In this document: positions 7,944 to 41,040 of the stretch, piece by piece | How positions within the stretch are numbered: position 1 is the first letter of the stretch | Layout: every line of letters begins with the position of its first letter | Virus record (IMG/VR): IMGVR_UViG_3300033067_001218 | Span: 1 to 41,040 of that record | Direction: 5' to 3' (one strand) | Origin: a virus | Lineage: Duplodnaviria > Caudoviricetes | Length of the DNA stretch: 41,040 bases | Made by a program: the position numbers and the translations under genes | Notes under the pieces: model-generated | What the model was told of the DNA's origin: nothing | The model's input: only the letters and a program-made list of their open reading frames with translations | The model's database searches: none

Positions 7944-10166
7944 TCAAGATCTGCCCCACTGATCTAGTAATCGACGTGCCTCTTCGTCTGAATTAGCACC
8001 ACCATTCTTAGCAAATTCCTCACGGTCTTGTTTTGCGTATTCATCGTTCGTTATATGTACATTTACGGTTAAGTCTGGAGCTAATGTACGAGACATAAGG
8101 AAATATCGGACGCTGTCACAGTTGCGTACTAAGATTCCGTTTGCATAATAACAATGTTCATTCTCTACTGTTAGATTGTATACGTCTTCGTTTCCGGAGT
8201 TCAGACGCTTTACAATTTTGATGGCAAAATCTGCTTCTTTGATTAAGTATTGTCTGATATACCTTACCGCACCACTCACATATTTTATCAATTCGTTGTC
8301 TATTTTTCTGTATTTCTCGCATATGTTTACTGTGCCATTCTTTTCCTTCTTTTGATGCGTGCCATTCTTTTGTAAGATCTCGGATCGAATTAAGATTTTT
8401 ACGTATTTTTTCACGAAATTCCACACGCTTCCAATTTTTTCTAAAATGGTCAATACTATGTTGAGAAGCTGATATACACTCAAGATTAGAAATATTATTA
8501 TTTTTCCTATCGTGGTCTTTATGGTGGATGTGATGTTTTGCAGGAATTTCCCCATTATAAAAAATCCATACTGCTTGATGAAGTCTTTTCCTCCCATTTT
8601 TACAGCCTCCAATAGGCGAGAAGTAGTGACCGTCCCAGTTGTATTTATGACCGTCGAATACTTGTTGTTCCATACACAAATACTATCGGAATATCTAAGC
8701 TCGTCAATAGATACAATACCTCTTGTAGTAAATACTTTATGATCCTTTGTTCCTCGTAAAATAGTTCCATCTGAGAAGAGACAAGAAACTATAGGTGCAT
8801 TTATGCGTGATAGTACATGTGATTCCACTCTTTGTTTTCCTAATGGTGTAGCTACATATTCTCCCTTGAGTGTTATATCTCGAATTTGCTTCGTTGTACC
8901 ATCAGCCATACGTATTTCAGTGTCTCCAGTGAGACAAGCGTGGTCGTTTAGCTTCACAGGCTGATCCGCATCATTTAAATCTGTCTTCTTTTCTTTCCAT
9001 CGATAATTTCGTAATTCTTTCTCAAGTTGAGGACAACACCCCTCAAATATAAATAATTTAGGAGATCCTTTTTGACCCGTAATTGGGTGTATTCTATTTG
9101 GATCTACACGTATGTACTCAGCCATTCTATTAATACCTGCTAAAACATCATTATTTGCCCGTGTGAAGTTTCCAATCCCATGTTCTTCATATTCATCCAC
9201 TACAGAGTATGCTACCGATCTCATAGCAGACTGAAGGTTTTTATTAAATATACTTGGATCAGCAATGATAGAGACAGTTGGTTGTTGTCTCATATTTTTT
9301 ATCCACGGAGCATGATTCGCAATAATGTCTTTTCCTTTATAGTATTCATTTACGATATATACATTCCCTTCTGTATCAATACGGTACACATAAAAAGCTG
9401 TTGGATTATTAGCTCCATGATCTAACGAATATCCAAAACCCCAATCAAATGGAATATCAAACGGTTTGATAATATTATTTTTTCCGAAATCTTTGAATAT
9501 TAATCCTGCATAGTGCATTGGAATACATTCCAACTCTTGCATCATCACGCTTTCATCTCCTTCGCATTCTTCTCGAATTTCTTGGATGTCTTTTTCAGAA
9601 AGTAGCTTAGTCTTCGATGCGGGGAAGAGGAAAGAAGCACGATCTTCTCCTTGTAAGAGATATTGCTGCCAGAGATGATTTTCCCCCTTAAGAGTTCCTG
9701 TGAATGTAACACCACCTCCTGTAAAAGATCCATCAGCCTGTCCAATGATTGTGTAGCGGAATACTGTTTGCCACCCGGTAGGGTCATGATCCGAAAATTC
9801 GTCCATACCAAGCCAATCAAACTGCGCACCACGATGAGGTTCGTAGTTATCCGATCCAATAAATTGGAGAATAGATCCATTTTTATAATAAATTATTAAA
9901 TCAGATTCATTTTTTTTCTTACAAATAGCATTTACTGCATACTTCCCAACAATACCACCAAGCCAATAAATAGATCGAGCCTGTTTATATTCTGGACAAA
10001 CGATCGCATAACGTCCCGGCTTTAATAACGCACGTCGCTGAATGTCGTTAAACATAAAGATCGATTTTCCAAATCGTCTATGTGCGACTAAGGTAATATA
10101 TCTCGCTTTAGAGTTATGTACTTCTTTTTGAAAGCTCCGTGGTTTGTACGGTACAATAACGTCCAT
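7944..10166 (-). CDS. terL: Terminase large subunit, intein-containing (468 aa after splicing)
   Basis: Walker A AHRRFGKS, Walker B WLGMDE, nuclease SLDHG; splicing restores NDHA-CDSVRY. Confidence 0.95.
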   Translation of the reverse strand: MDVIVPYKPRSFQKEVHNSKARYITLVAHRRFGKSIFMFNDIQRRALLKPGRYAIVCPEYKQARSIYWLGGIVGKYAVNAICKKKNESDLIIYYKNGSILQFIGSDNYEPHRGAQFDWLGMDEFSDHDPTGWQTVFRYTIIGQADGSFTGGGVTFTGTLKGENHLWQQYLLQGEDRASFLFPASKTKLLSEKDIQEIREECEGDESVMMQELECIPMHYAGLIFKDFGKNNIIKPFDIPFDWGFGYSLDHGANNPTAFYVYRIDTEGNVYIVNEYYKGKDIIANHAPWIKNMRQQPTVSIIADPSIFNKNLQSAMRSVAYSVVDEYEEHGIGNFTRANNDVLAGINRMAEYIRVDPNRIHPITGQKGSPKLFIFEGCCPQLEKELRNYRWKEKKTDLNDADQPVKLNDHACLTGDTEIRMADGTTKQIRDITLKGEYVATPLGKQRVESHVLSRINAPIVSCLFSDGTILRGTKDHKVFTTRGIVSIDELRYSDSICVWNNKYSTVINTTGTVTTSRLLEAVKMGGKDFIKQYGFFIMGKFLQNITSTIKTTIGKIIIFLILSVYQLLNIVLTILEKIGSVWNFVKKYVKILIRSEILQKNGTHQKKEKNGTVNICEKYRKIDNELIKYVSGAVRYIRQYLIKEADFAIKIVKRLNSGNEDVYNLTVENEHCYYANGILVRNCDSVRYFLMSRTLAPDLTVNVHITNDEYAKQDREEFAKNGGANSDEEARRLLDQWGRS
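8121..8936 (-). mobile_element. Intein (272 aa, TerL residues 411-682)
   Basis: Block A CLTGDTEIRMADG, block B GTKDHKVFT, block F/G DVYNLTVENEHCYYANGILVRN, +1 Cys. Confidence 0.95.
8158..8673 (-). CDS. HNH homing endonuclease encoded out of frame inside the intein
   Basis: RLHQAVWIFYNGEIP..HIHHKDHDRKNNNISNLECIS..H (HNH_3 type) plus C-terminal CEWC...FCHQNC zinc motif; ATG at 8673, different frame from TerL. Confidence 0.9.
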   Translation of the reverse strand: MEQQVFDGHKYNWDGHYFSPIGGCKNGRKRLHQAVWIFYNGEIPAKHHIHHKDHDRKNNNISNLECISASQHSIDHFRKNWKRVEFREKIRKNLNSIRDLTKEWHASKEGKEWHSKHMREIQKNRQRIDKICEWCGKVYQTILNQRSRFCHQNCKASELRKRRRIQSNSRE

Positions 10167-11782: not shown

Positions 11783-12010
11783 ATGGATACATTCAGAGTA
11801 ACACCGACAGAATTGACCGAGTATCAAACCACTACAGTAGCCAGTATTAAAGAAGCAGCTATCTTACTAGCATCTGTGATTCAGTATGGAAGCGACCAAA
11901 AACCTAGCGATTTAATTAATACTGACACTAGAGAGAAAGCACTTGCCATGACAAAACTAGAAGAGGCTGTTATGTGGGCAGTGAAGGGATGGACTAATCC
12001 AGAACTCTAG
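11783..12010 (+). CDS. Acb2/Tad1-like immune-signal sponge protein
   Basis: 75 aa helical hairpin with REKALAMTKLEEAVMWAVKG signature. Confidence 0.72.
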   Translation: MDTFRVTPTELTEYQTTTVASIKEAAILLASVIQYGSDQKPSDLINTDTREKALAMTKLEEAVMWAVKGWTNPEL

Positions 12011-12360: not shown

Positions 12361-12525
12361 ATGACAGACAAGATATTTTATACCTACTGTGACTTCTGTG
12401 AAATAAAGATAGAGGATGATAGGGACGCTCGGTACTTAGAATTCCACCATAAAAACGCTACTGCGTGCCAATCTTGCGAAGATAAAATAATCGCTTTCAC
12501 AGAGACTTTAAAACCTACTCTTTAA
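12361..12525 (+). CDS. Small zinc-finger-like protein (not in ORF track)
   Basis: 54 aa, MTDKIFYTYCDFC...CQSC. Confidence 0.6.
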   Translation: MTDKIFYTYCDFCEIKIEDDRDARYLEFHHKNATACQSCEDKIIAFTETLKPTL

Positions 12526-12547
12526 CCTATCTCCCCCCCCCCTTACT

Positions 12548-13213
12548 ATGAAGAAATATTCGCTACTTATAGACAGTCCAGAGTACCCAAAAGGTACAAA
12601 AGCTATCTTCAATGAAGAAGATGGTACCTACGACCTACATACCATAGACAGTACAGACCCGTTAGAGAACGAGAAAGGATTCATTGCGTGTCTAGCACCT
12701 TGGCAAGTAGAGAATCGTCCCACAGTTTGGGAAAGACTTCTACACACAGAATGTCAAGAGGGAAGAAATTGTACTGACTGTGCTGAAGAGCGGGAGGAGA
12801 TCACAGAAGAACAGGATAAAGAAGAGTGGCCGAAGGAAGATCAAGAGTGTTTTATTTTGAGTGATTCTGGAAGTATAGACCAGTATTTCTACCATAAAGC
12901 ATACCACGGCCAAATGTTGTTGGAAGCAGCAAGTTTGTTTCCTACTCGTGAAGCAGCCGCGACAGAACTCCTTCTACGGAAGCTGATGGTGAAGCGTTAT
13001 AGGCCACAAAGAAATGACAGATATTATAGATGGGATTTTTATTTAGAATCGGCAGAATTGGATTATTGGCTTCAAGATCGTCAGAACTTCGAGAACTTTC
13101 TACTGGGCAACACATTTCCTTATACCGATGAAGGCAAAAAACTATGCGAAGAATACGGCAAGCAACTTCAAAAATGTATAGACTTTTATCTCTCTCAAAC
13201 AAATAAAGAATGA
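12548..13213 (+). CDS. Hypothetical protein
   Basis: 221 aa ORF, acidic and aromatic. Confidence 0.75.
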   Translation: MKKYSLLIDSPEYPKGTKAIFNEEDGTYDLHTIDSTDPLENEKGFIACLAPWQVENRPTVWERLLHTECQEGRNCTDCAEEREEITEEQDKEEWPKEDQECFILSDSGSIDQYFYHKAYHGQMLLEAASLFPTREAAATELLLRKLMVKRYRPQRNDRYYRWDFYLESAELDYWLQDRQNFENFLLGNTFPYTDEGKKLCEEYGKQLQKCIDFYLSQTNKE

Positions 13214-19460: not shown

Positions 19461-20024
19461 TTAATCTTTCTTCACTGGAGTAATTTTACCGATTCTCTTT
19501 AATACGGTCAATCCATTATTATTCGGACGGTACGCAAAATGCTCCCATTGTCCTTCGCTATTTGCAGTAAACTCATGTATCGCTCTACAAATTCCTTCTG
19601 TTCCATCCTCTCCATGTTCTCCAAATGTATTGGTATCGTGAAACGCAATATAGTTCTTTGCTTTATTTCCATGTTTCGCTAGCTCTACTTTGAGTTGAGC
19701 GTAGGTATGAAGCGTATCAATAAACAATACGTCACACTCCGGAATATCTACCTCTCTAGAATCACCGTCAATAAATGTAAGTTTTGTGACATTTGGTAAC
19801 GCAGAAAGTCTTTTCTTTGTATCTGCATCGTGATTTGAATCAACACAAATAAGTTTCTTTGGTTCTGCATATAAGAATGCAATAGTGCTTACACCGTATC
19901 TCGTACCTAGTTCCACGATCGTTTTTGATCCTCGTGAGAGGTCTGCCAAATACTCCAAATGCTCATTGATATCAGTGGGATGCGCAATACTTGCCCGAAA
20001 AGATGTGCGTAATTGTTCGTTCAT
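19461..20024 (-). CDS. Class I SAM-dependent methyltransferase (Methyltransf_24-like)
   Basis: IVELGTRYGVST, DVLFIDTLHTY, IAFHDT, NNNGL. Confidence 0.85.
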   Translation of the reverse strand: MNEQLRTSFRASIAHPTDINEHLEYLADLSRGSKTIVELGTRYGVSTIAFLYAEPKKLICVDSNHDADTKKRLSALPNVTKLTFIDGDSREVDIPECDVLFIDTLHTYAQLKVELAKHGNKAKNYIAFHDTNTFGEHGEDGTEGICRAIHEFTANSEGQWEHFAYRPNNNGLTVLKRIGKITPVKKD

Positions 20025-20042
20025 AGTAAGAAGTGAGATGAA

Positions 20043-20747
20043 TTAGATAGTTTCAACATTATCATATGTATACCCTTCTGGTATATTTTGGAACAAAGTA
20101 GAATGTGTCTGCTCCGGCATTCCATCAGTATAATAATACAGCGCTATACTTTTTCGAGTAGTACCACTTGGGCAAGTAAGGGGGTGCGGATGTCCATGAT
20201 AGCTAATAGAATCAGTCTGAAATAAGACCATACGTCCTAGTATTGGATTTATCTTTGCAAAACAAGCACTCATATCTTTTTGCCACAACTCTAGCTGACC
20301 TCCCCATTCTTCTTTCCAGTTCTCATTAAGAAAGAGAAGTAAGTTAAGCCTACGTGTTTTTTGTAAGTTTGGATGAAAATTAAAATCTGCATGTATATCT
20401 AGCTTTCCTCCTTTTTCAATCATGTGTAGACCTCCCCCCATTAGTCCGTAGTCTGGATAAAGCTTCTCTCCTGTTATTTCTTCAAGTTGCTTGAGAAATA
20501 CTGGGCTATTTAACATATGAATTACGTCTAGGATACTTGGATGGATATTATCTATTTGTTCATATGCAAGTTTTTTTTCTCTTGAATTGCTGAATTGGTG
20601 CCATCCATAGTCGTTACTTGTAGGGAATAACCGTGCAAGTATTTGTGCTTTTTGCTTCGGAATAAAGTTATCTACTACAATATGCGGGAATACTTTTGCG
20701 TGTTGCCATTGATTTTTCCAGTAGGCAATCGGAAGTGTTGGTACCAT
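20043..20747 (-). CDS. 2OG-Fe(II) oxygenase (prolyl-hydroxylase-like)
   Basis: LDIHADFN (HxD), WGGQLELW, SYHGHP, RKSIALYYY. Confidence 0.9.
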   Translation of the reverse strand: MVPTLPIAYWKNQWQHAKVFPHIVVDNFIPKQKAQILARLFPTSNDYGWHQFSNSREKKLAYEQIDNIHPSILDVIHMLNSPVFLKQLEEITGEKLYPDYGLMGGGLHMIEKGGKLDIHADFNFHPNLQKTRRLNLLLFLNENWKEEWGGQLELWQKDMSACFAKINPILGRMVLFQTDSISYHGHPHPLTCPSGTTRKSIALYYYTDGMPEQTHSTLFQNIPEGYTYDNVETI

Positions 20748-20765
20748 AGAAAGAAAAAAATAATA

Positions 20766-22604
20766 CTATCCTCTGCGTAGTCCCGGAACAAGATGAGGGT
20801 AGTTTGTGGAGATAAATAATTCAAAATCTACTGGCATGGAAGTCATATGTCCAAGAGGGATGGTTGGATCTACAATAATATGATGACCTTTCTCTTTTGC
20901 ACGTGTTAAAAAGTACATATCCTCTCCCATATCTTTATTGTACTCAAACCACGGTGCTGTGACATCTTCAAATACTTTATTATTGATAAGTATACAACCT
21001 GTTCCTGTCATTCCAACTTCAAACGGTCGATCCATAGGCCACGGATAAAGAACGGCATGATGTTTCCCATCTCCTCCTCTCTCTGCATAAATACATGGAA
21101 CAAATGGAGGTTTCTTTGTGTATGCTATTGCTCCACAAATAGCTAATTTCCTAGCACGCAATCTGTTCAGTGTATCTGGTGCAAAGATATGATCTGAATC
21201 AATAAACCACACCCAATTACCTTCTCTATTTTCGACTATTTCGTTTCGTGCATCTGATATTTCTTTACAAATAGGCATCACAAGTTTCATTTCTTCTTGC
21301 TTGTTGATAAGCACACCTGCCAGTGATGCAACAAATTCATAATGTACATTTTCCATCATAGGAACGCCAATAGTACCGAATGGATTTTTTGGCTCGTCTA
21401 TCATTGGAAGAAACCCATCTTTATAACTCGTGAAGAATCCAATATCCTCTCCTATTACTTTATAGTTAACTTTTGCTTCTTGCAATTTCTCTTCTACGTG
21501 CTTCCACAAACCTTTTTTATCATACATTACTACCGGGAACTCTAGTTGATCTATTGCTTTTTTAGTTATGTACATTGCCGCTATGTCTTTCCCACCTTCT
21601 TGGAGAAAAACAACACACTCCTCATTCATTGCTTGAATTGATTCGAGTATATCACTACTGAATACATGCTTAGAATCGATTAAGAGTATCCATTCTCCCT
21701 TCATATTCTCCAACGCCTTGTTCCAAGCAGCAGGTATGAAATTATTCTTCATAGCGTATTGATACAACCACTGTTTCTGAGTGTTTAGCATATGGAAGTA
21801 GCAGTAGGCAAACTCAGAAGGAACCATTTCACCACCCGTAAATGCTACTGTACCGTTGTATATTTCAATATTGAATATCTTATCTATCACTTCATTACCC
21901 CATTTTGCTACAAGCAACTTATGTTTCGTATCTAAATCTTTTGCATAGGCTTCTGTATTATGTAGTAGCTCATAACTTGCAGACCCGACATGATACACGT
22001 AGACATCTCGTGCAATACCTAAATGCCATCCTGCTTGAACAATTCTAATAGAGTAATCAATATCTTCGCTAAACCCAAGACCAAAACGCACGTCTAACAT
22101 TCCAATTTCTTTCACTATAGATGCACGTACCATCATAAAGAACCCAATAAGGTATCTATCGGTGATCTGCAATCCATTTCCAAATCTATCGTTTAATTTT
22201 GCTTGTTGTAATCCGGCTACAGCGTCCGAAACTGGGCCAATGGCACCTAACTTCTCATTCTCATCGAAATGCTTCTCAAGTGATTCTAACCAGTTATTTT
22301 CAACTGCTATATCTGAATTTCCAAAAATAATATAATCGCTTTGTAATTCTTTATTTTCCAAGCGCATCAATCCTGTATTAATACCACCTAAGTATCCCAT
22401 ATTCTTAGGATTCGTGATGACTATGAGGTTTTTATAGAGCTTCTTTGCTGTCTCTAAATACTTTTTTGTTTTTCCGTCTGAGTCATTATCTACACAAATA
22501 ATGCGCAACTTGTCTTTGTCTGTATATTGAGCAAGTGATTCTAAACATGTTTTTAATACGTCGTGCCGGTTCCATACGGGAATTATCAGTGTAGTGAGAG
22601 CCAT
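20766..22604 (-). CDS. Multi-domain glycosyltransferase family 2 protein
   Basis: N-terminal GT2 (LIIPVWN, VDNDS, NSD, EDIDYS); C-terminal GT-A (ARNEIV, FIDSD, GTGCILI, GEDMYF); degenerate middle copy. Confidence 0.88.
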   Translation of the reverse strand: MALTTLIIPVWNRHDVLKTCLESLAQYTDKDKLRIICVDNDSDGKTKKYLETAKKLYKNLIVITNPKNMGYLGGINTGLMRLENKELQSDYIIFGNSDIAVENNWLESLEKHFDENEKLGAIGPVSDAVAGLQQAKLNDRFGNGLQITDRYLIGFFMMVRASIVKEIGMLDVRFGLGFSEDIDYSIRIVQAGWHLGIARDVYVYHVGSASYELLHNTEAYAKDLDTKHKLLVAKWGNEVIDKIFNIEIYNGTVAFTGGEMVPSEFAYCYFHMLNTQKQWLYQYAMKNNFIPAAWNKALENMKGEWILLIDSKHVFSSDILESIQAMNEECVVFLQEGGKDIAAMYITKKAIDQLEFPVVMYDKKGLWKHVEEKLQEAKVNYKVIGEDIGFFTSYKDGFLPMIDEPKNPFGTIGVPMMENVHYEFVASLAGVLINKQEEMKLVMPICKEISDARNEIVENREGNWVWFIDSDHIFAPDTLNRLRARKLAICGAIAYTKKPPFVPCIYAERGGDGKHHAVLYPWPMDRPFEVGMTGTGCILINNKVFEDVTAPWFEYNKDMGEDMYFLTRAKEKGHHIIVDPTIPLGHMTSMPVDFELFISTNYPHLVPGLRRG

Positions 22605-22966
22605 TATTCATTTGAATAGAGAAATACAGTAACTTTTGGTTCACTTGTGACAATGAACACATCTTCAAACCCAACCACTTGAGCCATCCCATCATTTTCG
22701 ATCATACCGCCTTCTTTCATACCATCCAAAATAAACTTCTTTGCAAAAGCTACATTATCGGGATCTTTTTTCTTATTTTTCACATACCAAACGACCTTGA
22801 GTTTAAAAGGAACGTCAACTTTCGTAAGTTGTTTTGTAATCCACGCTATACTTTCCGTCTGTTCCTTTTTTATTTTTGCAGCCTTGAATCGATTAGTACG
22901 TTCAGCATTGATATAAGTATTCAAATCACATAACTCAAAAGGAATTGTGAATTGAGTTATAATCAT
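22604..22966 (-). CDS. rusA: RusA-family Holliday junction resolvase
   Basis: DPDNVAFAKKFILDGMKEGGMIEND. Confidence 0.82.
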   Translation of the reverse strand: MIITQFTIPFELCDLNTYINAERTNRFKAAKIKKEQTESIAWITKQLTKVDVPFKLKVVWYVKNKKKDPDNVAFAKKFILDGMKEGGMIENDGMAQVVGFEDVFIVTSEPKVTVFLYSNE

Positions 22967-23139
22967 TGTACTTTTCGTTTATCAATCTCTTCCTGCATTT
23001 TTTCACTCACCCATTTTGATACACTGATTCTATCTTTGAAAAGTATATTTCTCATTTCTTGAAATATATCATTCTTTATATAGAGAGATTTCTTATCTTG
23101 TGGATGTAGTTTGTCTTCCTCGTCTTTTCTTTTTCCCAT
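22963..23139 (-). CDS. Putative ribbon-helix-helix regulator
   Basis: KKSLYIKNDIFQEMR...ISVSKWVSEKMQE pattern. Confidence 0.55.
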   Translation of the reverse strand: MGKRKDEEDKLHPQDKKSLYIKNDIFQEMRNILFKDRISVSKWVSEKMQEEIDKRKVQ

Positions 23140-23199
23140 AATTGTAGTTATAAAATACACACATATAATACACGTACTTCATATATAGTAAATACTTTT

Positions 23200-23379
23200 T
23201 TAGTCTTTCGAGTAATATCCGCTGCCTTTCAGTTGGAAAGATACTCTTGATATACGTTTCTGTACCTTAGTAGATTTACAGGTAGGACAACTAGTTGCTT
23301 CTTTCTTTTCGGAAGTTTGTAGATGCACCACCTCAAATCTATGATGACATTCTTCACATTCAAATTCGTATATTGGCAT
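23200..23379 (-). CDS. FmdB-family zinc-ribbon protein (not in ORF track)
   Basis: 59 aa MPIYEFECEECHHRFE...CPTCKS...FQLKGSGYYSKD. Confidence 0.85.
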   Translation of the reverse strand: MPIYEFECEECHHRFEVVHLQTSEKKEATSCPTCKSTKVQKRISRVSFQLKGSGYYSKD

Positions 23380-23518
23380 ACATACTAGTAATAAAAGGAA
23401 TTATCTCGAAATGTCTTACATAACTGTATACGAAACCATCGTATGCGTTTTCTCTGCTCTCCTTTGAAATTATAATAGAGCGTGAATAGCTCTAGTGCTG
23501 ACATATTTAATGTTGGGT

Positions 23519-24049
23519 TCATAGTATGTTAGGTTTCTTAGCAATTAAAACAGTATCCTTCCACTGATTCCCCTCATCCTCTTCTCCCGGCTCATCCCAA
23601 CAGGAATAGCATTCTAGTACTTCAAGACCTACATATTCCGCTAATGCTCTCATACCATCGGGAAGGAAGCGGTAGCAGTCTATAGGGTACCTATGAATAG
23701 CTCCAGATCCGGGAACAATAATACAAACAAGACCTTCAGTAGTAAGGTGAAACTTAATTTCCTCCATAACCTCCCAAGGTCTCGCAGTATGTTCAAGGCA
23801 TTGTCCAGAAACAATAACATCAAACTGTTTATCTCTAAAATTCCAGTGATATGGATCTTTTACTACATAGTCGACATTTTCACCATCTTCAATATCAAGT
23901 CCAGCATAACTACAATTTCTCTCAGCAAAGAGAGGCTTGTACGATCCATTCACATCCATAGATCCAACATCCAGCACAGAGAGTTTGTCTCTACTTGGAA
24001 GGTAGTTATCCACGAATCGCTTCATGTGTTTGTAGGAAAGTTTATGCAT
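23519..24049 (-). CDS. Class I SAM-dependent methyltransferase (Methyltransf_11-like)
   Basis: VLDVGSMDVNG, FDVIVSGQCLEH, HRYPIDCYRF. Confidence 0.88.
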   Translation of the reverse strand: MHKLSYKHMKRFVDNYLPSRDKLSVLDVGSMDVNGSYKPLFAERNCSYAGLDIEDGENVDYVVKDPYHWNFRDKQFDVIVSGQCLEHTARPWEVMEEIKFHLTTEGLVCIIVPGSGAIHRYPIDCYRFLPDGMRALAEYVGLEVLECYSCWDEPGEEDEGNQWKDTVLIAKKPNIL

Positions 24050-27457: not shown

Positions 27458-27811
27458 TTAAAAACCTATATCTTGCTGTACTACTGACTGTTTCGGACTA
27501 TTTCCAACCATTTCTGACTTTAGCTGATTTACCACTGATTTTGTCTTATTTTGGATTATTTCATCTGAAATTGGATTATTTGTGCTTTTTTCTCCTTCTT
27601 TATCTTTCCGCAACCTCTCTTTCGCATATGCCTGCATAGATGGGGTAATTTGAGATACGTAATGAACAGTAGGATTATCTTCTATAATATACGTATACAC
27701 TTTCAATTCAGTTGCTCCATAAAAATCTTGATAGCAAAAACAATTTACTGTAATTGGATGTCTTGTTCCGTATCCGCAGATAAATCCTTCCGATTGTTTT
27801 GTGTTATACAT
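27458..27811 (-). CDS. Hypothetical protein
   Basis: 117 aa overlapping the end of the RNase H gene. Confidence 0.68.
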   Translation of the reverse strand: MYNTKQSEGFICGYGTRHPITVNCFCYQDFYGATELKVYTYIIEDNPTVHYVSQITPSMQAYAKERLRKDKEGEKSTNNPISDEIIQNKTKSVVNQLKSEMVGNSPKQSVVQQDIGF

Positions 27812-28226
27812 AAAAACTTTGGTTTACAGTATATAGACTTCGCTTACTAAGCATATCAGCAATACTGTTTTCTTCTCTAGGAATCCATTGAAAATGTATA
27901 GAAGTGAAATTCGTAAGAAGTTCTGCAATCTGTGCTTTGAAGTTATTCATACGCTGATTATTCGTTGTTTTCCACGGTCTACTTGCTCCATTTACTACAA
28001 TCATAGAATCAAGAAAAAACTGTGCGTCTCTTATATCATGAGAAATAAGAATCTGCATTGCCTCAATAACAGCCATATACTCAGCCTCATTATTACTTAT
28101 TCCAAGTAGTCTCTTTGACACTTGTATGTGTAACTCTGGAATGTAAATACCAATGCCTATATAAGAAACTGTTCCCAACTTCCCATTCATACCTTCCGTA
28201 GCACCATCTGTGAAAACTGTAACCAT
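27804..28226 (-). CDS. rnhA: Ribonuclease HI family protein
   Basis: VFTDGA, SNNEAEYMA, DSMIVVN, WIPREENSIADMLS (D-E-D-D catalytic set). Confidence 0.9.
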   Translation of the reverse strand: MVTVFTDGATEGMNGKLGTVSYIGIGIYIPELHIQVSKRLLGISNNEAEYMAVIEAMQILISHDIRDAQFFLDSMIVVNGASRPWKTTNNQRMNNFKAQIAELLTNFTSIHFQWIPREENSIADMLSKRSLYTVNQSFYV

Positions 28227-28254
28227 GTTTTGTTATAAAAAAGTAACTAATAAA

Positions 28255-28722
28255 CATCTTCATGAAGGCTCGATTGATCTGGTGCGAGATTCCCCCTACC
28301 CCCACAGTAAAAATAACTGTAAGTGTAAGGTGATCAATTGAGACTTTCCTGTGTAAACAGAACTAATCTGTTCGCTATTCGCATCGTCGATAAGACCATA
28401 CGTTAGCCTACTTCACATACATTACTCCCCAAGTTAGGACATCATGAGAGCCGTATGCCGTAAGCGTCCCCGGAAGTACCACACTCCCTTACTTTGTACG
28501 TACCTAGCTTACGAACAGAATCGGTACTCAGTCCAAAGTATCTACCTGTTTTTATCAGGACTCGACCACACTCCCCCTCCAGATAGTGTAGCCGAGTTAT
28601 AACAAAAAAAGACTCTCACCGATAGCCGTTCTAAAACAGCTATACGTGACAATCTTTTTTTAAGAGTGTGTATATACCAATCTTAGAGCGAATATTCTAT
28701 CGGTGTTACGTGTTTGACGTAC
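28255..28722 (-). ncRNA. Candidate large structured RNA / leader upstream of RNase HI
   Basis: ~470 nt with no credible ORF and higher GC; several long stems with G-U pairs on the minus strand; upstream promoter. Confidence 0.6.
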
Positions 28723-28728
28723 AAAGAC

Positions 28729-28757
28729 AAGATACACCTCCACAAATACTTATGCAA
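28729..28757 (-). promoter_or_regulatory. Sigma70-like promoter for the structured region
   Basis: TTGCAT-N17-TATCTT. Confidence 0.55.
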
Positions 28758-28790
28758 GATCTTCTCTATTTACACACTTGTTTTTATGTT

Positions 28791-29150
28791 TTATTTTATG
28801 TTAATCATATTACGTATTTCTTTTGTAAACTCTTTAAACGTCTCTTTCATTTCGTGAGTAAATTCTTTAAATGTATCTTTTATTTCTTGAATATCTCTTT
28901 CGGTTTTGCTGACGATTGTGGTTACTTTAATCATATCTTTGTCTACTACTTGGTATCTGTCTGTCATTTTCTCTTCTATACGATCCATTCTCTCGTTATC
29001 TTTCAATCTATCATTTCCTAGTTGTGTTATTTGCGCTTGGATGGTTTGGTTACTTTGTGTGTATTTGCCAGTGAAATACGCTAATGTAAGTAAGTAGGTG
29101 ATAAGAGAAAAACCAAATGCAGCAAGAGAAATAAGTGTACCAGTCTCCAT
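28791..29150 (-). CDS. TM plus coiled-coil protein (lysis-associated)
   Basis: N-terminal TM helix, heptad-rich tail, follows the holin/CHAP genes. Confidence 0.6.
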   Translation of the reverse strand: METGTLISLAAFGFSLITYLLTLAYFTGKYTQSNQTIQAQITQLGNDRLKDNERMDRIEEKMTDRYQVVDKDMIKVTTIVSKTERDIQEIKDTFKEFTHEMKETFKEFTKEIRNMINIK

Positions 29151-40552: not shown

Positions 40553-40792
40553 TTATACTGTTTTTTCTAGATCTTCATACGTGGCAACATACTCCTTTGC
40601 TTCTGCTAATTGCTTTGTAATATCTTCCTTTCGCAAGATAATTGCTGTGTATTGGAAGATATGATCTTCTAGTACTGGCTCAAACGCCATTGCATCACGT
40701 ACGTCTACCTGTTCAATTACTTTTTCGTTTATCTCGAGAACGCCGTTGTTCCCGTTTTCTTTGATAAAATTGATAATGTCTAAATGTGTCAT
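40553..40792 (-). CDS. Hypothetical protein downstream of the fibre (allele B)
   Basis: 79 aa; differences from copy 1-195 are almost all synonymous, which supports coding status. Confidence 0.85.
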   Translation of the reverse strand: MTHLDIINFIKENGNNGVLEINEKVIEQVDVRDAMAFEPVLEDHIFQYTAIILRKEDITKQLAEAKEYVATYEDLEKTV

Positions 40793-40819
40793 TTTTTTAG
40801 TATAAAAAGAAATAAATAA

Positions 40820-41040
40820 TTATACGTTACTTGCAAGCAGGTAGTACGTTGTACCACCAATCACCATAGTAACCTTATGTGTACTTGCCACTGCAGCTCC
40901 TGCCGCAACCGTGTTATTGATTGCGATTGCACCAGTAAACGTAGCAGTTCCCACATTATTAAGAGACAGTCTTACTACTGGCCCCGGCACGCCTGCTTGA
41001 GTAGTAAGAAACTCTAAGCGCCCACCAACATCTCCCGTAG
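40820..41040 (-). CDS. Partial tail fibre, alternative C-terminus (allele B)
   Basis: Reads ...RLSLNNVGTATF-TGAIAINNTVAAGAAVASTHKVTMVIGGTTYYLLASNV*; shares its upstream part with 393-497. Confidence 0.85.
   Translation of the reverse strand, partial: TGDVGGRLEFLTTQAGVPGPVVRLSLNNVGTATFTGAIAINNTVAAGAAVASTHKVTMVIGGTTYYLLASNV

Follow-up and report, generated by a model that had tools for sequence, protein, structure and literature searches.

The window analysed here, 41,040 bases of the IMG/VR virus record IMGVR_UViG_3300033067_001218 (Duplodnaviria; Caudoviricetes), contains a gap of several hundred nucleotides (nt) directly ahead of an RNase HI gene on its minus strand. From its stop codons, G runs, predicted folding and comparison with relatives, this gap is judged to be a conserved non-coding RNA element that is rich in G tracts, folds in a strand-specific manner and is physically coupled to RNase HI. 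By its sequence features the finding would fall among structured leader or preprimer RNAs, here fused to its enzyme. The RNA-primed replication origin that a preliminary description had proposed for the site is a plausible inference and not a result.

The gap ahead of RNase HI and its G runs

The gap (28227-28790, minus strand, 564 nt) lies between an open reading frame (ORF) at 28791-29150 and the RNase HI gene at 27804-28226. It contains no ORF of at least 60 amino acids (aa) besides out-of-frame overlaps, and TAA, TAG and TGA are all present in six of its six frames, as is likewise the case in the related loci L002 and L097. Because every frame holds all three kinds of stop, no single stop reassignment opens the gap, and a hidden gene under another genetic code is ruled out. 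The non-coding status assumed in the preliminary description is borne out, there being no conserved ORF across the region. The Rfam scan suggested at that time was run on both strands (Rfam 15) and matches no described RNA family: 0 matches reached the gathering score in the 41,040 bases, and at E<=10 the interval 27700-29000 gave two chance-level matches only, neither of them to a plasmid replication RNA.

The folding of the gap is specific to the RNase H strand. The 564-nt minus-strand RNA reaches -178.5 kcal/mol, compared with -142.3 +/- 6.5 kcal/mol for its shuffles (z -5.58), and 0 of 100 shuffles folded as well, while the plus strand of the whole gap gives z -2.54. For the 374-nt core behind a U-run, the corresponding values are -4.0 in sense and -2.1 in antisense orientation. 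This difference between the strands agrees with an argument for RNA-level structure that had been drawn from stem mismatches resolving as G-U pairs, and all the stems named on that occasion are present where they had been placed.

By sequence statistics, the G tracts are a conserved and unusual feature of the element. The 374-nt core holds five runs of at least four G and 0 runs of four C, and the element of L002 also has five and none. Five such G runs were reached in two of 814 sliding windows, both of which cover the element, the densest place in the sequence. Across 24 lineages of this RNase H clade, sense runs of at least five G occur at 1.47 per kb in the 500 nt upstream of RNase H and at 0.31 per kb elsewhere; they were found upstream of RNase H in 10 of these lineages, and C runs are not enriched.

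Two adjacent G tracts, G5-UA-G5 at 28292-28303 on the minus strand, make up the G box (GGGGGTAGGGGG/GGGGGUAGGGGG), which lies 66-77 nt before the RNase H ATG and is joined by three further runs of at least four G. In the predicted folds the box is the 3' arm of a hairpin (28290-28332) with a pyrimidine-rich 5' arm (14 bp with three G-U pairs; -17.7 versus -7.2 kcal/mol antisense; z -4.5). The hairpin is enclosed in a terminal domain (28269-28342) by an outer helix of 28331-28342 with 28269-28280. Analogous G-box hairpins are formed in L002 (19 bp, four G-U) and L089 (22 bp, six G-U), where the two tracts read G4-U-G6 and G5-ACUAUA-G5, respectively. In all three sequences the spacer between the tracts (UA, U and ACUAUA) is matched by the partner arm and covaries with it. 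Pairing with the pyrimidine-rich arm, and not a hybrid G-quadruplex, is what the models predict for the G tracts in each case. L097 departs from the pattern (z -1.8, with the antisense strand folding better).

The homologous element in L002 and the RNase H cassette

The 564-nt element has no match among GenBank phages, and blastn and nhmmer searches with it against 121 loci returned nothing below E 0.18. A covariance model (R1) was built from the window sequence alone, covering 28466-28600 with four helices, P1-P4. When 98 kb from 29 related loci were searched with filters off, R1 gave one significant match, L002 2123-2246 (E 2e-07), on the RNase H strand and directly 5' of the gene; the next best hit had E 0.44. 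Two IMG/VR motif scans yielded 23 and 41 loci, of which R1 accepts only two, both being L002's own contig. In the R1 alignment of the window with L002, 11 of 34 pairs are changed on both sides (8 of 12 in P1 and 3 of 6 in P4), and all of them still pair. Pairing cells amount to 100% in this alignment, as against 31-48% after a shift of the 3' partners by 1-3 columns. A homologue and compensatory pair changes, which the preliminary description had left to be looked for, are present, the latter in P1 and P4 of two sequences. Alignments of two to three sequences by MAFFT/RNAalifold misaligned the helices and were excluded from the pair counts.

P1 (28561-28596, minus strand as for all parts of the element) is a 12-bp hairpin with a G-rich loop, and P4 (28472-28488) is a 6-bp hairpin followed by GGGGA; both are placed by the R1 alignment to L002. 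P2 (28545-28559) is a CCUG-loop-CAGG hairpin (CCTG/CAGG in the DNA) with an identical stem in L002 (CCUGAUAACAGG) and L097 (CCUGUUCGCAGG), and, being invariant, it offers no covariation evidence. P3 (28490-28540), in which UACUUUG/CAAAGUA encloses P3a GUACC/GGUAC (28499-28527), is seen in the window; its counterpart in L002 is ambiguous, and R1 leaves P3 mostly unaligned.

Compared by eye, L002 (RNase H 56% identical) and the window are collinear in the region upstream of the gene, which runs from a hairpin with U-run through a P1 of other sequence, a CCUGAUAA..CAGG hairpin, CUAACUUGGGG and the G box to a palindrome. The conserved block CUAACUUGGGG (28427-28437) is the same 11-mer in L002 and reads CUACACUGGGG in L089. 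The G box is GGGGUGGGGGG in L002 as against GGGGGUAGGGGG in the window, each then followed by AU. The palindrome CTTCATGAAG (28258-28267) is a perfect one of 10 bp whose ATG lies 37 nt ahead of the RNase H ATG, and the same 10-mer stands at the same 37-nt spacing in L002. The N-terminal extensions of two RNase H proteins, P0002 and P0004 (63-67% identity), read 'GVGG', which is the translation of the G box in window ORF 28093-28305, and that of P0004 also reads SLHEEF, compatible with the palindrome. Because of these readings, the 3' part of the element probably exists in four RNase H lineages.

A near relative, from run X3, departs from the window at 6 of 319 positions in the core and at 15 of 423 in the coding sequence of RNase H; this lower divergence of the core points to purifying selection. 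Of the six core variants in near relatives, one turns a G-U into an A-U pair, and the others fall on unpaired positions or on the last part of P1, a number too small for judging the pairing.

Gene order indicates that the element RNA and RNase HI move together as one cassette, since only these two are common to the window and L002. The order is lysis genes, element, RNase H and RecT in the window, and TerL, element, RNase H and portal in L002. The genes that follow the homologues, a point raised in the preliminary description, are unrelated, as are the other flanks: none of five flanking proteins of the window has a relative in any locus compared. In L097/L103, small terminase and endolysin genes enclose RNase H together with 700 nt free of ORFs, and RNase H is followed by NinB in L004 and by an RNA-ligase-like gene in L087. 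Among the 22 lineages of the clade, 12 have at least 450 nt without an ORF (of at least 60 aa) upstream of RNase H.

The enzyme itself (27804-28226, minus strand, 140 aa) is identified by Pfam, active-site residues and solved relatives. It matches RVT_3 (7.4e-18) and RNase_H (5.3e-12) with 65.1 and 46.5 bits against cut-offs of 21.6 and 25.8. Among 43 sequences, the active-site carboxylates E47, D73 and D124 are invariant and D7 nearly so, and the best solved relatives are 3aly/2ehg, 3hst and 3u3g. On this comparison it is assigned to type 1 RNases H of the Sulfolobus tokodaii / LC11-like subfamily. The protein has 67 database relatives. A single-protein search of IMG/VR gave no close relative of RNase H or of the upstream ORF, and profile scans found 107 viral loci (80 kept), 42 metagenome loci and 12 genome loci, the best match being 56% identical and the genome matches being distant archaeal genes. 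The upstream DNA comparisons cover RNase H relatives of at most 56% identity. A tblastn search of GenBank phages returned only two Enterococcus phages, at 31%.

Two further kinds of upstream region were observed in the clade. The stretch L092 1435-1933 (also L094, L095 and L098) is ORF-poor and folds with z -4.7 in sense and -2.8 in antisense orientation, with no evident similarity to the window element. Seven lineages interpose a small basic ORF of 49-70 aa between RNase H and the G run, with AT-rich direct repeats ahead of it (L004 2322-2486, L005 2341-2499, L083 3699-3905, L087 1367-1522, L088 375-527, L096 482-694 and L105 514-663). The small ORFs form two sequence groups, 'SMAKIV' and 'F.FRL...SWN.L', and by eye they look ribbon-helix-helix-like and possibly DNA-binding; Pfam, applied to eight such ORFs, gave one sub-threshold VapB-antitoxin match only and did not confirm the fold. 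Across an eight-sequence alignment of the small-ORF relatives, the only common features are the G run and a block reading AAGACC. A CAAGACC block with a hairpin of variable sequence behind it is shared by L085 (~518), L087 (~1218), L096 (~244) and L002 (~2173), a hint at one wider RNA family that would take in elements both with and without the small ORF.

What the element may do

The 5' leader ahead of the core starts with promoter-like hexamers, TTGCAT (28752-28757) and TATCTT (28729-28734), separated by 17 nt. The preliminary description had called 28729-28757 a promoter; a sigma-70 consensus scan lists no minus-strand site there, the scan being of sigma-70 type only and the host not being identified, and we keep the site as putative. 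A terminator-like hairpin flanked by A7 and U7, in the same orientation as RNase H, follows in the folds (28597-28661). Its A-run, hairpin and U-run are located at 28604-28661 and mark the 5' boundary of the conserved element; the hairpin is long and leads into U7, and a strict terminator scan does not list it. The nonamer CACCGAUAG (28697-28705) is a perfect complement of the terminator 3' arm CUAUCGGUG (28617-28625) and a candidate antiterminator. In constrained folds of the window sequence, the alternative conformer with this perfect 9-bp pairing has -33.0 kcal/mol, versus -38.1 kcal/mol for the terminator conformer, and in prefix folds it is the minimum free energy fold at a transcript length of 115 nt. 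With mutually exclusive pairings of similar energy, the modelled 5' leader looks like an attenuator.

Two putative extended -10-like motifs were also noted, TGGTATATA (28671-28679) in the short leader, from its letters, and TGTTATAAC (28596-28604) between the U-run and P1, from a by-eye comparison in which the equivalent spot reads TAGAAA in L002, GATAAC in L087 and TATATT in L089. Promoter-like sites precede the core in L002 (TTTACT-16-GATAAT, 9/12) and L088 (TTGACT-17-TATAAT, 11/12, with TG), and one in L089 was seen by eye and is absent from the scan listing. A hairpin with U-run occupies the equivalent position in L002, L087, L089 and L097. In the near relative of run X3, the terminator stretch 28592-28732 is replaced by 155 other letters.

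Our best explanation, put forward tentatively and with somewhat less than even confidence, is by analogy with known systems that the G runs of the transcript form an R-loop with the template and that this is cut by the adjacent RNase HI. It is suggested by the sense-only G runs together with the linkage to an enzyme that acts on RNA-DNA hybrids only, by the mobility of the two as a unit, by a genome without replication genes, and by the DnaA boxes and AT-rich repeats of the relatives. The most likely branch, though doubtful when taken by itself, is that the R-loop would serve as a primer for phage DNA replication; a weaker branch, improbable on its own, is that R-loop cutting would feed back on RNase H expression. 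The first branch would make the cassette a self-contained and horizontally mobile phage origin, with promoter, attenuator, G-tract preprimer RNA and RNase HI in one piece, a picture that we hold no more firmly than the branch itself.

Under the R-loop explanation, transcription would begin from a promoter located either upstream of the terminator-like hairpin or immediately after it, and read-through of the hairpin would be regulated via the 9-nt antiterminator alternative. P1-P4 and the G-box hairpin would then set whether the G tracts are free, and the G5-UA-G5 box with the three additional G runs would pair with the C-rich template, as in ColE1 RNA II or CSB II, a conserved sequence block of mitochondrial DNA. 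The phage RNase HI would trim the RNA-DNA hybrid. Finally, a host polymerase would extend the primer, and RecT, the exonuclease and RusA would carry on with recombination-dependent replication.

The statement in the preliminary description that the phage has no recognisable replication genes holds. A PHROGs search at E<=0.001 assigns none of the 53 ORFs to an initiator, helicase, primase or polymerase family, none of the 19 ORFs without assigned function matches a replication family there at E<=0.5, and a Pfam scan of 45 ORFs gave no replication-protein match. The 117-aa ORF 3' of RNase H (27458-27811), where a conventional initiator had been considered possible, has no family found and a poor Atlas model. 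The two ends of the window repeat each other imperfectly in direct orientation, with 91% identity between 1-223 and 40598-40820, 98% identity between 389-497 and 40932-41040, and an indel of 54 bases. The contigs encoding the closest RNase H proteins measure 40.9-44 kb. Since the ends overlap and the contigs of relatives are of this size, the window is probably a complete genome of ~40.6 kb, circularly assembled or terminally redundant, despite the IMG/VR/CheckV label of the record as 55% complete and linear.

Origin-type signals were found in the relatives. Perfect copies of TTATCCACA, which we take to be the DnaA-box consensus, number six within 800 nt upstream of RNase H, compared with 0.22 expected (P ~1e-7; 24 relatives and the window). 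They lie in L004, L085, L086, L087, L088 and L102 and adjoin a promoter-like site in L085 and L088. AT-rich direct repeats are located in relatives between the G run and the small ORF. Counted over all positions, perfect DnaA-box 9-mers total 15 against ~1.6 expected and are densest upstream of the RNase H cassettes.

Several points weigh against an R-loop, and in particular against an origin. In the predicted fold, a stable hairpin locks up the G box, with the partner arm made earlier during transcription, an arrangement that would compete with the hybrid. Were an R-loop to end 75 nt short of the ORF, the message of RNase H itself would be truncated as well. The features that point to an origin stem from the relatives and not from the window: the window's element has no DnaA box at up to one mismatch, and the two perfect boxes of the window, at ~30030 and ~32420, are ~1.8 and 4.2 kb away from it. 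No iterons occur in the window, its cumulative GC skew does not turn at 28.3 kb, and the AT-rich stretch of its element extends over only ~31 nt. Perfect DnaA boxes are enriched elsewhere in the loci too (9 versus 1.35 expected). The sigma-70-type scan finds no plus-strand promoter-like site within 28227-28600, the host being not identified, and Rfam gives no RNA I match. The covariation comes from two DNA sequences in an alignment fitted to the model. A second model, R2, made for the 3' domain from the window only, has no significant relative, and AU-rich tails dominate it. Five of 13 upstream stretches, the window included, fold better than shuffles on the sense strand (window -4.0, L002 -3.8 with -2.5 antisense, L092 -4.7, L087 -2.5 and L089 -2.5); that of L005 folds better in antisense orientation, and the other seven are not significant. 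An initiator could, besides, hide among the many small unassigned ORFs.

Nearly as likely as the R-loop, and possible without being probable, is an ordinary cis-regulatory 5' leader, in which promoter, attenuator and folded untranslated region tune the RNase H/recombination operon through RNA structure, protein binding or RNase III-type processing, with neither an R-loop nor a role in replication. The layout fits such a leader, as the element is directly 5' of, and on the same strand as, the gene it travels with, and no terminator separates it from the RNase H ORF. The terminator/antiterminator alternative is typical of attenuators, the palindrome, with its constant 37-nt distance to the start codon, is operator-like, the 19-22 bp stems of L002 and L089 would suit a double-strand RNase, and the relatives place a small, possibly DNA-binding ORF before RNase H. 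A leader of this kind leaves the sense-only G runs unexplained, however, and these recur without measurable structure (L004 has five runs at z -0.3). There is also no pairing over the start-codon region that is conserved between the window and L002, and 370-700 nt is very long for the control of one small enzyme. In the small-ORF relatives, moreover, the G run is followed downstream by an AT-rich, promoter-like stretch, which may place the element outside the RNase H message there.

One or two independent non-coding RNAs, acting in trans on host or phage targets or binding RNase H and linked to its gene by shared function only, make an unlikely account. One of them would be an RNA of ~125 nt that begins at the promoter-like site and ends with the terminator hairpin (28597-28725), and the second, or an alternative to it, a processed ~330-nt RNA ending at the G-box hairpin. 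A promoter-like site with a U-run hairpin is indeed the usual layout of a small-RNA gene and recurs in L002, L088 and L089, and the structured core has covarying hairpins; but no terminator follows that core, Rfam offers no match, and the near relative exchanges the short-RNA stretch for 155 unlike letters while keeping the core. That the gap is a functionless spacer, its hairpins and G runs having arisen incidentally where a terminator, a promoter and neutral sequence separate two operons, would suit its position between late (lysis) and early-type (recombination) gene blocks and is nevertheless very improbable, given a significant structural match in a phage with other flanking genes, compensatory pair changes, 10- and 11-mers kept in order and spacing, and divergence below that of the adjacent coding sequence.

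Genome context and known systems

Along the minus strand, the genes run from virion genes, a 1234-aa protein, two CHAP-domain proteins and small membrane-type ORFs to the 564-base gap, RNase HI, the 117-aa ORF and RecT, and then to a PD-(D/E)XK exonuclease, RusA and a glycosyltransferase / 2OG-Fe(II) oxygenase / methyltransferase block. The window has no tRNA or tmRNA. The 119-aa ORF immediately upstream of the element contains a 33-nt unit twice (28825-28890, 84% match), which encodes the duplicated peptide KE(F)T(H/K)EMKETFKEF. A Shine-Dalgarno sequence is absent before 35 of 35 start codons examined, and the upstream 25 nt are A/T/C-rich and G-poor, which points to a host without Shine-Dalgarno-led initiation.

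Other observations concern single genes of the window. The large terminase (7944-10166, minus strand, 740 aa) contains an intein (Intein_splicing 3.6e-10, residues 442-682). A 75-aa ORF at 11783-12010 on the plus strand has an Acb2/Tad1 hairpin domain (Pfam 1.2e-12) and may be a sponge that takes up cyclic-nucleotide signals of defence. Ten consecutive C at ~12525-12545 (plus strand), immediately 5' of a 221-aa ORF (12548-13213), may be slippage-prone. The block at 19461-24049 (minus strand) comprises a 2OG-Fe(II) oxygenase, a 612-aa double glycosyltransferase with a weak match to TET-associated glycosyltransferase, and two to three methyltransferases, and from these matches it looks like a DNA hypermodification module.

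Among known systems, ColE1 RNA II forms a G-tract-dependent R-loop that RNase HI processes into a primer and DNA polymerase I extends, and a G run near the RNA-DNA switch point is a defining feature of ColE1-type RNA II origins. The element would resemble ColE1/pMB1 RNA II as a folded sense transcript of several hundred nt with a G run shortly before the proposed switch point, with RNase HI as the proposed processing enzyme and with no need for an initiator protein of its own. In contrast to ColE1, which uses the RNase HI of its host, the gene is here part of the element; neither sequence nor Rfam relates the two, the promoter scan shows no antisense site of RNA I type here, and the G box is in a hairpin.

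At mitochondrial CSB II, the RNA is both primer and read-through message, and an RNase H1-type enzyme takes part in the pathway; the proposed element RNA would likewise be both. T4 origins are short promoter-plus-unwinding elements that are not known to have a long folded RNA or an adjacent RNase HI gene, and the T4 'RNase H' is a flap nuclease of another family. CSB II is characterised as a two-tract G element (PMC3488243). With the mitochondrial light-strand promoter and CSB II the element would share a pair of non-template-strand G tracts located downstream of a promoter, here a putative one. The element belongs to a bacteriophage, and the likeness is one of design and not of descent. Both the ColE1 and the T4 origins are presented as using R-loops, and at T4 oriF and oriG the promoter transcript is stated to stay hybridised and to prime leading-strand synthesis (PMC12599619). 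By analogy, the proposed phage origin would have in common with these a promoter and a hybridised priming transcript.

The 5' leader also resembles the lambda PR'-6S RNA-tR' arrangement in that a promoter-like site is followed by ~70-125 nt, a strong U-run hairpin and then a gene block, and, as in attenuated phage leaders, an alternative pairing could prevent the terminator in the window. Unlike in lambda, no Q- or N-type antiterminator protein was matched in PHROGs among the 53 ORFs, and a conserved, covarying part comes after the terminator. RNase HI genes are common in phages, and their role is rarely known. Full-text literature searches found no such cassette described and only two short computational candidates upstream of viral rnhA. 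These two predicted RNAs, located at most 25 bp upstream of viral rnhA in IMG/VR, are listed by Fremin et al. 2023 (PMC10690425) as DNAVirus_1112 and DNAVirus_5578, with 36 nt (gut Clostridia phages) and 57 nt (Algavirales) and with two and one covarying bases, respectively. As they are described there, they differ from the present element in length, habitat and host, a separation made by description and not by sequence comparison.

If the R-loop explanation with its priming branch were true, a 40-kb phage without initiator, primase, helicase or polymerase would start its replication by R-loop priming, and in its relatives control would additionally involve a small repressor-like protein and DnaA boxes. 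The cassette would then be the first case of a phage replicon whose primer-forming RNA and processing enzyme travel as a unit, and it would explain how DNA synthesis starts in phages without recognisable replication genes. It would also provide a bench-testable bacterial counterpart to mitochondrial primer formation. If the element is a leader only, it would still represent a new class of structured RNA, of ~370 nt and with conserved G tracts, and a marker for a mobile RNase H cassette.

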